64,000 bases of DNA from positions 1 to 64,000 of IMG/VR virus record IMGVR_UViG_3300037200_000120. One strand, written 5' to 3'. The translations under genes were made by a program, and so were the position numbers. The notes beneath the pieces were generated by a model. It worked only from the letters and a program-made list of their open reading frames with translations. It did no database searches and was not told the DNA's origin. Each line of letters begins with the position of its first letter. Within the stretch, counting starts at the first letter, position 1. Source of the stretch: a virus. Positions 58,161-64,000 of the stretch are shown one piece after another.

Positions 58161-59579
58161 TTACGAGACCGTCACGCCTTCGGCGAGCGGCCGATAGCGG
58201 ATGTACGGCTTCCAAGTGCCGGTCACGGTCGGGCCCGAACCAACAACGATGTTGATAGTTCCCGCCGGCGCCATGATCGTGCCTGGATTGGCAATCAAAT
58301 TGGGACCGTTGGCATTTAGCAGCGCCGCCGTGGCTAGCGCCGTGCCGGCCAGGGTAATGGAGGCGCCCGCTGCGGAGCTAGCCACAGAGGCGGAAGCCGC
58401 GCTGATGGTCTGCGTGCTTCCCGTCGTCGGGATCACTTCGAACTGCACCGTCGCCGCCGTCGAATCGCCGCCGACCGCGCAAATCAGGAACAGCGCCTCA
58501 ATCAGAATTGGGCCACCGGCCACGGTGAACAGCGCGGCACCCGTGGTGAGCAGAATCGCCGCTTTAGTGATGGTCTTGGGCTGCAAGTCGACGACGCCTT
58601 GGAGCAGCGCGTCGATCGAGGCCGTAGCGCTCGGCAGATAGACCGCAGCATCGGTCTTGTTGCCGATGACGTCACGCTCGAGGACGTTGGCCGACGAGTT
58701 CTGCGCCGGCACGGCAAAAGTCGCCGCCGAAGGGAGCCCAGCCGGGGTGACAGCGGAGCCGCCCTGGAAAGCCACGCCACCGATTCCATCATACCCGCTG
58801 ACGAACCATGTCGAGCCGCCGACAGTATCGACCACGTTCTTGGTAATGGCGGTATTGTAGTTGTAGAAATAGCCGCTGACCTGAACGTCCACGCAGGCGG
58901 TCGTGGCGAAATCGACGACCGCGGTCGACCAGGCGCCGTAGGCATTGACGACGATATCGGCATTGACGACGCCGACCAATTTGACCATCGTGACGCCGAT
59001 GGTCGAGGCTGTGAACCCTTGATGGGTGAGGTTGAGCGTGAGATTCGACGCCGCCGCAGTCGTGATGACGTCCGTCACCGCCCCAACCGTCGACGAAACG
59101 TCCTGGACCAGCGCCGAGATATTGACGCCAGCGGCCTGAATCGCGAAGATCGTCGCCAGCGAGGCGATGTTGGCGACGAAGACGGGGAGCGCGCCGGGAG
59201 CGCCGCCGATAAAAGTATTCGCCCCCGTGATCAGAATGGTTGCGGTAGTCGCTGTTCCCAGCGTGAATGTCGCCGCCTCGGCGCCGACGCCTAGATTCCA
59301 GAAGGTCAGACCCGCTTTGCTGATCGTGAGGCCGCCGGCCGCGCTGATCGTCTCCGCATGCCCCGCCATCCAGACGATGACGTCGCCGGGGCTCGCCAGC
59401 GTGATCGCGCGCTGCGTCGTCTTGAGCGGCTGCGCGAACGAACCCGCGTTGCCGTCGACGCCCGTCGCCGAATTGACGAACCAGACCGAACCGGAAGTCG
59501 GAGGAATCCCCGCCGTTCCCATGGTAGGAACGCCGAACGAGGTGACGCCGAAAGGAAAATTGGTATAACCCATTGTCAT
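58161..59579 (-). CDS. Virion structural protein (head fibre / decoration candidate)
   Basis: TNFPFGVTSFGVP, WFVNS..G.DGNAGS..QP..T, GHAETIS. Confidence 0.7.
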   Translation of the reverse strand: MTMGYTNFPFGVTSFGVPTMGTAGIPPTSGSVWFVNSATGVDGNAGSFAQPLKTTQRAITLASPGDVIVWMAGHAETISAAGGLTISKAGLTFWNLGVGAEAATFTLGTATTATILITGANTFIGGAPGALPVFVANIASLATIFAIQAAGVNISALVQDVSSTVGAVTDVITTAAASNLTLNLTHQGFTASTIGVTMVKLVGVVNADIVVNAYGAWSTAVVDFATTACVDVQVSGYFYNYNTAITKNVVDTVGGSTWFVSGYDGIGGVAFQGGSAVTPAGLPSAATFAVPAQNSSANVLERDVIGNKTDAAVYLPSATASIDALLQGVVDLQPKTITKAAILLTTGAALFTVAGGPILIEALFLICAVGGDSTAATVQFEVIPTTGSTQTISAASASVASSAAGASITLAGTALATAALLNANGPNLIANPGTIMAPAGTINIVVGSGPTVTGTWKPYIRYRPLAEGVTVS

Positions 59580-59687
59580 GACTCCGAGAGTGCCCGGCGT
59601 GATTCGAACCGCCGCTTACCCGACCAGGGACACAGAGAGGATTGCGCTACGCGCCGCTGACGCCGGGTTTTGAGCCTTCGGGAGGGC

Positions 59688-60398
59688 TTAGAGCTTGTGC
59701 TTCGCTAGATAGGCGATGGCGCGTTGGAGAATGGCCTGATCGTCTCGACCGTAGCCGAGCATTCGATTGCAGCGGACGCAAAGGAGACCGCGAACCTTGC
59801 CGGTGTCGTGATCGTGGTCTACGGACAACTCTTGGACTACTTTCGTCCTCGAGTTGATGAAACTCTCAGGATTGCCGCATATGTCGCAAACATACCCTTG
59901 AGCTTTCGCCAGGGCGGCATATTCCGTCACGTCGATGCCGAACTTTTTCTTCAGCGTCCAATTGCGGACGTAATCGGCACGCTCTTGCGGCGTGAAGTAG
60001 TCCTTGACGGGAACCTCAGGCGGCGGCAACCAGAACAGATTGTCTTTCACCCACGGGCCGGTAGGATCGATCAGCCTGAGAACATGCTTTGGGCCTGGAC
60101 GCTCCCCGACATCGGCGAGGAAGGCGTCAAACCAGCGCCAGGAGGCCGGATAGTTGCCGGCCCCTAAGCGCAGCCTCGTATTTTTCCAGAGCGGCTTTAA
60201 CGGGTGACTGTCCCGCGCGTAATGGTGCGAGCAAAGCTTCTTGGCGAAAACGATTTCCGTGCATCCCTCGATATCGCACGTTCTCGTCAATTCCGAGTAT
60301 TCAGACAACGTACCGCTGGTGCGCTCGCTTTCGTAGCACCCAGTGCATAATCCGCGCCCTTGGTTGCGCTTATCTCTACCGCATTTCCTGCATATCAT
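59688..60398 (-). CDS. Free-standing endonuclease VII-family (homing) endonuclease
   Basis: LKKKFGI...EY......QG..CDIC...LSVDHDHDTGKVRGLLCVRCNRMLG; two N-terminal zinc fingers. Confidence 0.9.
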   Translation of the reverse strand: MICRKCGRDKRNQGRGLCTGCYESERTSGTLSEYSELTRTCDIEGCTEIVFAKKLCSHHYARDSHPLKPLWKNTRLRLGAGNYPASWRWFDAFLADVGERPGPKHVLRLIDPTGPWVKDNLFWLPPPEVPVKDYFTPQERADYVRNWTLKKKFGIDVTEYAALAKAQGYVCDICGNPESFINSRTKVVQELSVDHDHDTGKVRGLLCVRCNRMLGYGRDDQAILQRAIAYLAKHKL

Positions 60399-60479
60399 CC
60401 GGTTACGGCCATGGTAGGCCCCTCTGTTGAAGGAAGCCAACCATGTACCTTTTTGTTGACGACCAATCAAGATCAATCG

Positions 60480-62597
60480 TCAGACGCCAGGCCATTATTT
60501 CACCCTCGGTCGCTATCCCGAAGATCGTCCACTGAGGACTGCTGAACGTTTCCGCTCAGAGAAGACCATATCATGATCTCTCGAAAGAGACCCTGCGCAC
60601 TTCCCGCCGCTTGGCGGTACTCCCCGAAGGGATGGCCGTTGAACCTTCCGCTCATTGAGCGGCTCGGCTGCTGATTGTCCAATCTAGTTGCTTTTCAAAC
60701 TATCGCGCCCGCCGTTGCCGGCCACGCTGTAGTGAACTAGCTCTAAGGATGTTCCAGCAATTCACGCAGTTATTCGACAGTAGTCGCCTACTGAAGGACC
60801 CAATATGTGGCGTCACATATAGTAACGAGTCCCGTAGATCCCGCGGAAGTCGCTCCAACCGCAAGAATAACGCTCGTAACAAGCCGCTTTGGCGTTCTTG
60901 GTATCGACGCTTATGTTCGATTTGGATAGCAACTCCAAACCCGTCCTAAGTGGACTGCCTCATATTACTATGAGGGCCAGACTATATCATCATCCTGAAT
61001 ACTCAGGAGTGGGGCGCTTCGGCTCGCTTGAGCCTACGATCTCGCGATCTAGTCGTTGCACCTTCCGTCTCTCGACGGCTTGGCTCAGGATTGTCCCCGG
61101 CACCACCCGGTAGGAGATTCCCTGAGTTCACCCCATTCTTCGATGCGAGTCACCCCGCAAAGGACCTAATTCCAAAGAATTGAGTCGTTGTCCTGATCGC
61201 TAACTATTCGAAATGAATCGCTAATTCATCCCCGGCTTGCGCCTGCTGCACGTTTCCGCGCAGAGTGGACTATATCTTCATCTATTCAATACTGAATAGA
61301 GCTAGGAACTTCGGCCCGCTTGGGCCTACGGTCTCGCGACCTAGTCTCTGAACCTTCATCACGATATTACATGATGCTTGGCTGCTGATTGCCCAATCCT
61401 GCAAATTTTCAAACCGTCACGCTCGCCGTTACCAGCCACGTTGTGGTTTTGCAGGCTCTAAGGGTGTTCCAGCAATTCACCTAGTTTAGACAGCTCCAAT
61501 CATTAAAGCTGATGCCCTCGCGCTCGTACCACATCATCCCGCGCGGGATATTCGTCCTGATAAACCAGGCGGTCGCGCTGGAGAAATAGTGGCTGGCGAA
61601 GATCCCCTTCGGGAAAGCTCCCATGGCGCGCATCACGTTGATGTTGTTGTTCGCCGTGTCGCTCTGAAGCACGCTCTTGTAGATGCGGTTAGCTTCGAAG
61701 ATGAGCTGATAGGGGATATGGAGGGACTGAGGAAGCGCGGAGATTTTCAGCCCGCGCGAATTGACCGTGAGGCCGACCTGGATCAGCAGATCCTCGATTG
61801 CGGTTTCGGACAAGTCCGCCGCCGTCGTGAGGAGATTCGACTGAGAGCCGCCGACAGTCGGATGCGCATTGTTGATCATGCACGTTCCGTCGCCGCCCGT
61901 ATAGGCCGTGTTGAATGCACGGTTGTAGACGTTGGCCGCGATGTTTTCCTTGGTCTGCCGCATCGAGAACGCCAATTGCTGGGCGCGACGCTTGCTGACC
62001 ACTTCGTAGAGATCGTCTTTCAACTCTTCGTACGTGACGATGTAGCCGAGAGCATAGGCGACGTTCGTATAGCGAGTGACCGAACCCTGGGTTTCGGTGT
62101 CGTACACGATCGAAGTGCCTTCGTTCTTGACCGGCGCCAAGCCGAAGCCGGTGATTTCGACCTCTTCTTCGTACGCCTTGTCTGAGGTGTCCTGCTCGAA
62201 CAGATCCGACCATTCGGAAACGTGTTCGTCGTAGGAACGCCCCCACCAAGCCGCGATTCCTGGCCAAAGGGCCTTCGCTTGTTTGTTCGACGCAATTCGC
62301 TAGATTGCGCCCGTCGCTCTAAACGCGACCGCTGCATATCGCTATGCAGGCCTGACTATCTCTTGCCCCTCAATTGATCGATAGGGGCCGCACCATTTCG
62401 GCTCGCTTGAGCCTACGGCCTTTCGGCCTAGTCGATGAACCTTACGACGTGCTATGATCGTCGTCTTGGCTGCTGATTGTCCGATCGTCGGAATCAGAAC
62501 GAGCGGAGTTCCCGGCAATTAAATGCGATCCCATTGCGCATTACGGCGCAATGGCCCGAGTTTATGCAGGATGTGTGCCTGTAGTAATAACGGCCAT
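60480..62597 (-). CDS. Major capsid protein, 5 exons: 62568-62597, 61506-62275, 61183-61199, 60828-60907, 60480-60491 (302 aa)
   Basis: GGAGG RBS. The splice gives MAVITTGTHP|KALWPGI...REGISF|DQDNDF|DTKNAKAACYERYSCGWSDFRGIYGT|PGV*, 909 nt in frame. Confidence 0.9.
60492..60827 (-). ncRNA. Group I intron 4 (336 nt, no ORF)
   Basis: 5' exon ends in U, intron ends in G; AATTGCTGGAA, AATCAGCAG, TTCAACGGCCA, ATGATATGGTC; P1 GGGACU/GGUCCU. Confidence 0.9.
60908..61182 (-). ncRNA. Group I intron 3 (275 nt, no ORF)
   Basis: AACTCAGGGAA, AATCCTGAG, TGCAACGACTA, ATGATATAGTC; U|...G| boundaries. Confidence 0.9.
61200..61505 (-). ncRNA. Group I intron 2 (306 nt, no ORF)
   Basis: AATTGCTGGAA, AATCAGCAG, TTCAGAGACTA, AAGATATAGTC; P1 CAGCUU/GAGCUG and P10 UGAUUG/CGAUCA. 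Confidence 0.92.
62276..62567 (-). ncRNA. Group I intron 1 (292 nt, no ORF)
   Basis: AATTGCCGGGAA, AATCAGCAG, TTCATCGACTA, AAGAGATAGTC; boundaries CCU|...GCG|AAG. Confidence 0.9.
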
Positions 62598-62627
62598 GTC
62601 GGCCTCCTATGTTTCTCCAGCCAGCCC

Positions 62628-63257
62628 TTATTCGCCGGTGGTGTTGGTGAACTGATGCAGGTTGATCGATGTCAGCCACTTGGCGTTGGTCCCAAGAACG
62701 TTGTCGGCCTGTTCCAGCAATCTGAGAACGCGCATCTGAAGCGCGCTGGTCGAGAGCGAGGCGGAACCCAACTGCCAGCCGGAATATCCGGTGACGGTGG
62801 AACCCGCGCCCGCGACGAGATCGACGTTCTTGCCGGGCCCCGGAACGGAGCCGGCGGTCGGGGTCGCGCCCGCCATGTTGCCGTTTTCCTGCGCCTCGAA
62901 GAGCAGGAACGGATCGTCGGCGACCAGGATATACCCGGCCGTCAGCGCCGGCAGATAGACGTTGCTGGCCTGAGTAATCGGGATGATCGGCTCGCCGCCG
63001 TTGACCCGACCCACGACGGAGCCGATCAGGCCATAGGTGCCGATGCCGGAATCGGTGCCGTTGCCAGCGGTGATGATTTGAACGGCGGGGATGCCGTTAC
63101 CGTCGGCCGAACCGCTCAGGATTTGAACGGGATCGCCGATGTAGAGCGCCGTAGCATTGGCCGCCGGAACGTAATAGATGTTCGCGGCGCCGTTGTACGG
63201 GGCTCCTGACCTGTAGCGGTAGGGGATGAGCCCGCGCGCTACGACAGCGTTAGCCAT
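62628..63257 (-). CDS. Head structural protein upstream of the capsid gene
   Basis: MAN....GL.P...LYIGDPV...VADDP.LLFEAQ...NLHQ. Confidence 0.75.
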   Translation of the reverse strand: MANAVVARGLIPYRYRSGAPYNGAANIYYVPAANATALYIGDPVQILSGSADGNGIPAVQIITAGNGTDSGIGTYGLIGSVVGRVNGGEPIIPITQASNVYLPALTAGYILVADDPFLLFEAQENGNMAGATPTAGSVPGPGKNVDLVAGAGSTVTGYSGWQLGSASLSTSALQMRVLRLLEQADNVLGTNAKWLTSINLHQFTNTTGE

Positions 63258-63366
63258 GGGGCTAATCCTTCATGTCGGAGTTTTGGTAGCCGCTGGCATG
63301 ATTGGCTGCGGCGCGAAATCGCTGTTGATTGACCCGGAAGAACGAGCCGGGGCCGATGCTCTATGG

Positions 63367-63954
63367 CTATCGACGGGCGTGCGTGGTCGAGATCTTGATC
63401 CCCCGACCTTCCGAACTGGGGTAGAAACGTTTCTGATCCACCGCGTCCTTGGCGTTGACCATGCCGCGGCGAATGGCGTCCTCGCGCTGGGCGACATCCT
63501 GCTCTTGAGCGGCCATGTCGTCGGCGTGCCATTCCTCGGGGATTTCAAGGAGATGGGAATATTGCGGGACGCCGCCTTCGCGGACGCCGGTCACGCGCTG
63601 GACGTTCTTGCCTCTGGCATCCTTGACCGGAGTCCAACCGCCTTCTTCGAGTGCGAATTCGATACGACCTGGATTGTCGACGAACCAGTGACGATAATAG
63701 CCGGGACGGGAGGGATAGGCGAGCTTCTGTTGCGTGGACCCGAACGGGCGCCGATTGGCGCGGGTGCGGCGCGGCGCGTCCGAGGAGGCGTCGGCCGTGA
63801 CGCCAGCGCCGACAGGGAGGGCATCCGAAGGCAACGGAGAGGCGCTGGCTCCTTCGAGGCCCTGATTGGCCGCTGAGGGGCTCTGAGCGGCTTGCTGGGC
63901 TTGCGGCGGAGCTGGGTTGACCCCCGCGAGTTGAACGGCGCGGGCGGCGCGCAT
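63367..63954 (-). CDS. Conserved head-module hypothetical protein
   Basis: RPGYYRHWFVDNPGRI...GW.PV...LLEIPEEWH..D; AAGGA RBS. Confidence 0.7.
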   Translation of the reverse strand: MRAARAVQLAGVNPAPPQAQQAAQSPSAANQGLEGASASPLPSDALPVGAGVTADASSDAPRRTRANRRPFGSTQQKLAYPSRPGYYRHWFVDNPGRIEFALEEGGWTPVKDARGKNVQRVTGVREGGVPQYSHLLEIPEEWHADDMAAQEQDVAQREDAIRRGMVNAKDAVDQKRFYPSSEGRGIKISTTHARR

Positions 63955-64000
63955 TTCCTTGGTGAAACCGCGAGGGCGCGGAGCGTCGTGTTGGGCTGCG

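Follow-up and report, generated by a model that had tools for sequence, protein, structure and literature searches.

Four group I introns without open reading frames in the major capsid gene of an uncultured peat phage

The present analysis concerns a stretch of 64 kb (the window), which forms the first part of the 98.9-kb IMG/VR virus record IMGVR_UViG_3300037200_000120, with an estimated completeness of 95%. The record represents an uncultured phage from peat, with a genome of ~99 kb, a G+C content of about 59% and a depth of about 24x in the sample. The major capsid gene lies on the minus strand, to which all of the checks on this locus refer, and an earlier note on this DNA had proposed that it is split by self-splicing group I introns. 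The results support the view that the gene is interrupted by four group I introns without open reading frames (ORFs), and that splicing is required to obtain the capsid protein of 302 amino acids (aa). The exons and introns are listed below with lengths in nucleotides (nt). L005 is a related IMG/VR locus without introns, L123 is a related locus with introns, and RF00028 is the Rfam group I model, which has a gathering score of 50 bits.

62568 to 62597, minus strand: capsid exon 1 (30 nt), encoding MAVITTGTHP, the N-terminus as in intron-less homologues; blastn to L005.
62276 to 62567, minus strand: group I intron 1 (292 nt), ORF-less; RF00028 match at 62573-62332, 50.5 bits; follows U and ends in G.
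61506 to 62275, minus strand: capsid exon 2 (770 nt); PF25209 and phrog_371 matches; 81% nucleotide identity to L005.
61200 to 61505, minus strand: group I intron 2 (306 nt), ORF-less; RF00028 match at 61515-61246, 82.1 bits, E 2.4e-19; P1 and P10 present.
61183 to 61199, minus strand: capsid exon 3, a micro-exon (17 nt) encoding (F)DQDND(F); homologues read SFDQDNDFDTK.
60908 to 61182, minus strand: group I intron 3 (275 nt), ORF-less; RF00028 match at 61187-60958, 67.7 bits; same site as intron B of L123.
60828 to 60907, minus strand: capsid exon 4 (80 nt); blastn to L005 and homologue alignment.
60492 to 60827, minus strand: group I intron 4 (336 nt), ORF-less; RF00028 match at 60837-60542, 52.0 bits; P7 variant GGCCA/UGGUC.
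60480 to 60491, minus strand: capsid exon 5 (12 nt), encoding PGV followed by TGA; intron-less homologues end in GTPGV or GTAGV.

Joined in order, the five exons form a coding sequence (CDS) of 909 nt for a protein of 302 aa. A large protein collection contained thousands of capsid homologues, most of which are 302-303 aa long and unsplit, and thousands have at least 70% identity. A global alignment of the spliced product with five intron-less homologues of 302 aa (P0002, P0003, P0004, P0006 and P0017) contained zero gaps, and the best of these, P0002, was identical at 286 of 302 positions. This bears out the claim of the earlier note that removal of the four inserts yields an uninterrupted capsid protein of 302 aa. 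The test set beforehand, namely that homologues should align across the predicted junctions, was run, and the alignment was gapless at all four. The predicted junction peptides (THP/KAL, ISF/DQDNDF/DTK and YGT/PGV) all occur in intron-less homologues, and the closest homologues start with MAVITTG.HPKALWPG and end with ...SFDQDNDFDTKNAKAACYERYS.GWSD.RG..GT.GV. We therefore regard the exact junctions as established.

The insert sizes given at the outset were also found to be correct, and they leave no room for an endonuclease ORF. The introns make up 1209 of the 2118 nt of the gene span (57%), and the unspliced frame ends after 11 codons (CCT GCA TAA), as predicted, because TAA comes one codon past MAVITTGTHP. 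The rule that each insert follows a U and ends in a G held for all four, while the proposed borders of intron 2 and a micro-exon of 16 nt did not stand. The naive placement of intron 2 ends in C, and the rule requires a one-base shift; the corrected borders are 61505-61200, which split a Phe codon as TT/C and give a micro-exon of 17 nt. Both placements encode the identical protein, and an RNA contig of a relative that reads ...AGC TTC GAT C... over this junction fits the corrected border.

The identity of the gene was assessed from its longest exon, its homologues and its position. Exon 2, with a translation of 257 aa, matched both PF25209 (Phage_capsid_4) and phrog_371 (major head protein). 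Exon 2 alone scored 27.3 bits against PF25209, for which the cut-off is 27, and the full-length, 94%-identical homologue P0002 scored 34.2 bits over profile positions 28-260 of 262. Homologues from cultured phages, with identities of 37-52%, are annotated as major capsid or head protein and are all unsplit; they include those of Alcaligenes phage vB_Af_QDWS535, Pelagibacter phage HTVC023P, Roseobacter phages CRP-901/902 and Caulobacter phage RW. Within the head module, terS, terL and portal lie upstream of the capsid gene on the minus strand, a tail-fibre-like ORF lies downstream, and no second capsid gene was found in the virus record. Given the profile matches, the annotated phage homologues and the position after terS, terL and portal, the split gene is on this evidence the single major capsid gene of the phage. 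Sequence and profile searches of the PDB with the capsid protein returned no matches, and an AlphaFold2 model of P0002 from a 30-sequence alignment was too poor for use, with a mean predicted local distance difference test (pLDDT) score of 44.9.

The inserts were then compared with the group I model. RF00028 matched all four above its gathering score, and the whole model (1-253) was covered in every match. No further group I introns were detected by RF00028 in the 98.9-kb record, and an nhmmer profile built from seven related introns again returned just these four. Each intron forms a P1 helix of 4-6 base pairs (bp) with a U.G wobble at the 5' splice site: AUCCU/GGGAU in intron 1, CAGCUU/GAGCUG in intron 2, GACU/GGUC extended by AAUUC/GAAUU in intron 3, and GGGACU/GGUCCU in intron 4. 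In intron 2, P1 is adjacent to a 6-bp P10 (CGAUCA/UGAUUG). All four introns carry the terminal G (omega-G), and their borders were fixed independently through the homologue alignment. The P10 of intron 2 occupies nt 1-6 of the 17-nt exon and the P1 of intron 3 occupies nt 14-17; as these are separate nucleotides, the two helices do not compete. All four Rfam alignments contain a 31-nt insert between the P7 5' strand and the P3 3' strand, corresponding to P7.1 and P7.2. Because both hairpins are present and covary, the four introns are assigned by these features to subgroup IA, which is the type usual in phages.

Covariation was examined in a set of 26 introns, comprising the four window introns, three found in related capsid genes, and 19 that the P7.2 motif had picked out in other IMG/VR contigs. 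The alignment covered the part from P6 to P9 (MAFFT) and used a self-written structure in which P7 was treated as a pseudoknot. Paired cells reached 88.7%, compared with 68.7% in shuffles, and changes on both sides were observed in 21 of 27 pairs. The covariation score was 0.526 versus 0.183, and none of 500 shuffles scored as high; when partners were slid by 1 to 3 columns, pairing fell to 31-46%. Helices P7, P7.1, P7.2 and P9 covary across the set, with P7 98.5% and P7.2 100% paired, and the changes in P7 include U-A to C-G in 11 sequences and C-G to U-A in 4. P8 was 62.5% paired in the MAFFT alignment, and P3-P6 and P8 were judged from the Rfam alignment alone. The compensatory P7 variant noticed earlier in intron 4 (GGCCA/UGGUC in place of GACUA/UAGUC) proved to consist of two changes, A-U to G.U and U-A to C-G. 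The second is common to ten other introns (i.e., 11 of 26), and the central C-G pair of P7 is retained. Both the ribozyme identity of the inserts and the covariation of their helices can thus be taken as established.

An alternative explanation of the same structures is that at least one intron is splicing-dead, which would leave a dead capsid gene and a defective phage, or that splicing depends on a protein cofactor or on a neighbouring ribozyme that acts in trans. It draws on the scores of introns 1 and 4 (50.5 and 52 bits against the threshold of 50), on their weak or absent P10, and on the tiny exons (17 and 12 nt), as these might promote exon skipping or mis-splicing. However, all helices of the core are preserved, as is the P7 C-G pair, and the changes in them are compensatory. 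The exons are under purifying selection, with 94% protein identity compared with 81% nucleotide identity to L005, and the genome is ~95% complete at ~24x depth and contains no second capsid gene. Pieces of exon 2 (0 differences) and intron 4 (1 difference) also occur in an independent RNA library, described below. We consequently consider this alternative very improbable.

The stretch is present in 16 public runs, mainly from peat and lake water. One DNA run, X1, which is probably the source sample, and three metatranscriptomes from peat were compared as contigs rather than reads, and the RNA contigs cover the stretch in parts only. In RNA run X3, which belongs to a different study, a 176-nt piece of exon 2 showed 0 differences and a 149-nt piece of intron 4 showed 1 difference; a near-identical phage is therefore present in X3. 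The same run contains a 292-nt contig with 96% identity that runs from 61443 down to 61200 and then from 61498 down to 61451, with nothing between the two parts and nothing shared by them. Read in the RNA sense, it comprises intron 2 positions 63-306 followed directly by positions 8-55. This permuted order fits an attack of the terminal G on the bond after intron nucleotide 7, and hence a circle of 299 nt. Excised group I introns are well known to circularise via their terminal G in a side reaction (Tetrahymena, T4), and since the joint lacks a repeat, an assembly error does not explain the contig. A circular RNA resembling intron 2 therefore exists in nature, and this single contig is good evidence that intron 2, or a 96% relative of it, is excised and active there.

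Two further X3 contigs (records 5 and 9) carry exons 1-2 and exons 2-3-4-5 joined exactly at the predicted borders. They were rejected as proof of splicing because 5-7% of their positions, mostly synonymous ones, deviate from the window, and they may derive from intron-less relatives. Two other matches relate to intron cores elsewhere. Window positions 61444-61477, in P4-P5 of intron 2 (34 nt, 3 differences), are matched by very abundant contigs of peat RNA runs X5 and X6 (depth 2343 and 35), whose similarity to the window is confined to this piece, and another highly expressed group I intron RNA from peat therefore has this core segment. A 60.5-kb contig of X1 (record 2) matches window positions 60661-60681 and 61014-61037 at a spacing of 234 nt compared with 332 nt in the window; another phage in the same sample thus has a related intron.

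The core reading of the locus is supported by the covariance model, the splice-site rules, the P1 helices, the covariation, the gapless junctions and the circular RNA resembling intron 2. From these we infer that all four introns self-splice in the window phage. The possibility that the interruptions are assembly artefacts, in which chimeric intron-like repeats were joined into a normal capsid gene, was also weighed, given that the record is a metagenome assembly and that a contig of the same sample (X1 record 2) contains related intron cores. Against this, a single 86.9-kb Logan contig of X1, which may be the source sample, spans the entire stretch with 0 differences. The inserts are 51-63% identical pairwise and hence are not collapsible repeats, their nucleotide-exact borders restore the frame, and a like architecture occurs in other samples, as in L123 and L124, which come from two samples and are identical at the locus. 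The probability of an artefact is accordingly negligible.

The occurrence of the introns among related capsid genes was patchy. The best 80 IMG/VR loci for the capsid were all uninterrupted and gave zero intron-like matches; these include L005-L008, which are 98% identical to P0002, and L005 shares 94% protein identity with the window capsid. Alleles with introns came to light when a different homologue served as the query. L123 and L124, which are identical over the compared part (L123 4001-7000), contain a 260-nt intron after CDS nt 58 and a 293-nt intron after nt 817 (Rfam 87 and 57 bits, respectively). The second of these sits exactly at the site of window intron 3, to which it is 66% identical. 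A third locus, L179, contains a 313-nt intron after CDS nt 37 (Rfam 79 bits). The window introns follow CDS nt 30, 800, 817 and 897, and the seven verified insertion sites of the capsid family (30, 37, 45, 58, 800, 817 and 897) are clustered at both ends of the gene. Across the roughly 200 loci examined, introns were confined to about four distinct alleles. At site 817, the window and L123 (~82% protein identity to each other) both have an intron and the closer L005-L008 (94%) have none, a pattern that requires at least two gain or loss events. The pairwise identities of the four window introns rule out that they are recent duplicates of one another.

Additional elements were observed in the capsid genes of relatives. 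The site after CDS nt 45 was found in a metagenome scan with our own nhmmer profile (L231:264-1095), where an insert of ~830 nt holds a 228-aa ORF resembling GIY-YIG enzymes (IYCITN...KRYVGQT); this is presumably a mobile intron that carries its endonuclease. Two database proteins, P0007 (277 aa) and P0008 (280 aa), depart from the family directly behind SFDQD and then reach a stop, as would be expected if gene calling had continued into an intron; its site, near CDS nt 810, would be the eighth. At L123:4698-4712, and likewise in L124 and L195, the capsid gene contains a 13-nt insert, GAACCATTATATG, which follows U and ends in G. It lies exactly at the L179 intron site (CDS nt 37/38), 21 nt upstream of the full intron, and brings in a stop codon (TGA) after codon 12. 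The two possible 5' splice sites share the ending GCCU. If it were retained, the conserved N-terminus would be lost. The insert may be an intron remnant or a core-less 'mini-intron' in need of a neighbouring ribozyme.

Introns with the P7.2 motif were also identified in the major head genes of three other families (L085, L099 and L106), in genes for a tail sheath (L100), an RNA polymerase subunit (L112) and a DNA polymerase (L118), and beside a transposase (L096). As head genes of several families are hit, this intron group commonly targets capsid genes. In a second class of elements with the P7.2 motif, GGTGTTTTTTTAATGGAGTAGA replaces the usual J6/7-P7 sequence and only the 3' halves match the intron profile (L086-L088, L092, L093, L097, L103-L105, L111, L113, L115, L117, L119 and L120); most copies come from one sample (3300045988).

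Two features next to the capsid gene are listed here.

62603 to 62608, minus strand: Shine-Dalgarno sequence AGGAGG, 5 nt ahead of the capsid ATG (62597), read directly from the sequence.
59688 to 60476, minus strand: free-standing nuclease gene with an Endo VII motif (DHHRN type); PF02945 6e-22, phrog_2914 8e-33.

Two ORFs lie between the portal region and the capsid gene on the minus strand, at 62628-63257, with a sole match to phrog_37556 (function unknown), and at 63367-63954; from their position, they could encode scaffold or decoration proteins. A promoter and terminator scan of 59000-64000 returned nothing exceeding chance.

The nuclease ORF begins 4 nt past the capsid stop codon, with a likelier start at ATG 60398. 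Its Endo VII domain is C-terminal (PF02945 at residues 175-258), and the translation shows the CX2C, DHDH, R and CX2C-N residues of the F-CphI ('DHHRN') family (PMC6083498). The gene is absent from L005, in which downstream homology resumes 66 nt after the stop codon compared with 792 nt in the window. Among the 77 distinct related loci with enough flank, nine have nuclease homologues at the same place; eight of these are intron-less, and the ninth is L123/L124. The nuclease was thus present in 2 of 2 alleles with C-terminal introns and in 8 of 75 others (about P = 0.015, uncorrected for relatedness).

These observations allow a mechanism to be proposed. The primary late transcript would be untranslatable past codon 11. 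Each folded intron would form P1 between its guide sequence and the 5' exon, which ends in U, bind guanosine and excise itself, and the exons of 30, 770, 17, 80 and 12 nt would be ligated into the 909-nt frame. The introns have no endonuclease of their own, and their spread would most likely be driven in trans, either by the downstream Endo VII-motif nuclease or by nucleases of co-infecting relatives. In the mode known as collaborative homing, the intron would also shield its own genome from the cut. That the neighbouring nuclease itself drives homing of the introns in this way is a tentative proposal, at somewhat less than even odds.

A bolder and rather unlikely version is that the nuclease and the three introns in the last 110 nt of the capsid gene form one homing cassette. 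If this were true, the cut made by the nuclease would fall near the 3' end of the gene in intron-less alleles of co-infecting relatives, and repair would copy the nuclease gene together with the nearby introns, each of which destroys the target in its own genome. Collaborative homing would then be extended from one intron to a multi-intron, 'armoured' gene end, and the placement of intron sites at both ends of the gene would be explained.

A functional role, as suggested in the earlier note, was considered as a further alternative, in which the introns are retained for the benefit of the phage. Splicing that depends on guanosine triphosphate (GTP) and Mg2+ could time or throttle capsid synthesis, or the introns could break up sites for host nucleases, spacers of clustered regularly interspaced short palindromic repeats (CRISPR) or the homing endonucleases of competitors. 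In keeping with this, all four introns of the genome lie in a single gene, and the capsid family is very conserved and abundant (thousands of members with at least 70% identity), which makes it a good target for a nuclease or spacer. Moreover, sporadic free-standing nuclease genes adjoin the capsid gene in relatives, and an intron-encoded endonuclease can matter in phage-phage competition (PMC11620839). Nevertheless, more than 95% of the sampled related capsid loci are intron-free, the nearest relatives included, and both sites and intron sequences vary by lineage, as expected of mobile parasites. No evidence was found for a regulatory, CRISPR or anti-nuclease role, and protection from the genome's own nuclease is already part of selfish collaborative homing, which needs no benefit to the phage. 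An adaptive role is therefore less likely than selfish mobility, and we consider it improbable. The patchy occurrence of the introns, which we count as established, and the neighbouring free-standing nuclease fit selfish elements better than a functional role; the introns are best read as selfish mobile elements, tolerated since splicing works well.

Taken together, the best explanation is that four ORF-less, self-splicing introns of type IA lie in the capsid gene as selfish elements, which spread most likely in trans; we assign this a probability of about 0.9. Several observations weigh against it. Introns 1 and 4 barely exceed the RF00028 threshold and lack a convincing P10. The circle contig is 96% identical rather than identical, and is a lone contig with a depth of 6.8; the joined-exon contigs are divergent, as described. 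The insertion sites show no consistent tendency to lie in the most conserved capsid nucleotides (conservation percentiles 52, 88, 87, 60, 97 and 22). The link between nuclease and introns rests on co-occurrence in two independent alleles, and eight intron-less genomes carry the nuclease too. Lastly, the capsid 3' ends of nuclease-positive and nuclease-negative intron-less loci revealed no target-site signature, a comparison in which no signal is readable because relatedness swamps it.

The earlier note had stated that phage group I introns occur mostly in DNA-metabolism genes, at one to three per gene. This is too narrow, as capsid-gene cases have been published. Introns in capsid genes are described for lactococcal phage Tuc2009 and mycobacteriophage LittleE (PMC3706429), and crAss-like phages of the Delta group typically carry them (PMC7886860). 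In the Zeta-group cMAG OLRF01000054, the capsid gene is in five fragments, and three of its four spacers contain endonuclease domains of group I type (PMC7886860). Twort orf142 and the polymerase and terminase genes of Bastillevirinae are reported to have as many as three introns each (PMC11878797). The mean number of small group I introns in the genomes of jumbo gut ('Jug') phages is 18.5, and metatranscriptomes support them (PMC12880540). Our full-text literature search found no paper on a phage capsid gene with four group I introns.

The closest parallel in architecture is the crAss-like case (Yutin et al. 2021, PMC7886860), in which the capsid gene of an uncultured tailed phage is likewise in five pieces with four inserts of group I type. 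Those introns are known through endonuclease domains, in genomes rich in introns and inteins, whereas the introns of the window are 275-336 nt long and ORF-less, are confirmed at the ribozyme level and are the only ones of the genome. The capsid family (PF25209), the peat habitat and the G+C content (about 59%) are also unrelated to the crAss-like case. The orf142 of Staphylococcus phage Twort (Landthaler & Shub 1999, as cited in PMC11878797) resembles the window in that several small ORF-less introns of type IA are clustered in one gene with short internal exons. Twort orf142 has three introns, while the window has four, in a capsid gene, with an internal exon of 17 nt and a last exon of 9 coding nt. 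Splicing and exon skipping are reported to be bench-proven for Twort, while the evidence for the window is indirect and comes from environmental RNA.

In LittleE and Tuc2009, as in the window, the capsid intron follows U, ends in G and is missing in close relatives, and free-standing HNH genes are common in their genomes (PMC3706429). Each has one intron, however; that of LittleE encodes an endonuclease, and splicing was confirmed by reverse transcription PCR and N-terminal sequencing (PMC3706429). Jug phages share with the window small ORF-less group I introns that split essential genes, and metatranscriptome reads support their splicing; they differ in that ~18 introns are scattered among many genes and terL is split into two or three pieces, compared with four introns in the window, all in the capsid gene (PMC12880540).

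With respect to mobility, the nearest model is the psbA intron of cyanophage S-PM2 together with F-CphI, a case of collaborative homing (PMC6083498; review PMC3984707), and the layout is as at the window locus. Like the window nuclease, F-CphI has the C-terminal CX2C / DHDH / R / CX2C-N arrangement, and its gene is sporadic among relatives. F-CphI has been demonstrated to cut the intron-less allele, and the intron to protect against it, whereas the window nuclease is a candidate identified by its motif. In contrast to S-PM2, the window has three introns within 110 nt of the 3' end of the gene and one at the 5' end, and intron-less relatives of the window phage also carry the nuclease.

The locus is thus a further, well-documented example of an already described phenomenon, and it leaves the known range of phage-borne element kinds unchanged. 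Its particulars are four ORF-less introns within a 909-nt capsid frame and none elsewhere in the genome, an internal exon of 17 nt and a last exon of 9 coding nt, a circular intron RNA in nature, and an adjoining candidate nuclease that could act in trans. Standard gene callers give a fragment of 219-257 aa here and miss the true capsid protein of 302 aa, and the same misannotation is expected in relatives, as exemplified by the truncated database proteins P0007 and P0008. As the most highly expressed virion gene depends on four ribozymes, between or after which lie exons of 17 and 12 nt, the locus lends itself to tests of splicing fidelity and exon skipping. It further offers a good system for the study of how introns without ORFs pass from one environmental phage to another, since the same capsid family combines near-identical intron-less alleles in their thousands with seven or more insertion sites and a neighbouring nuclease gene that occurs sporadically.

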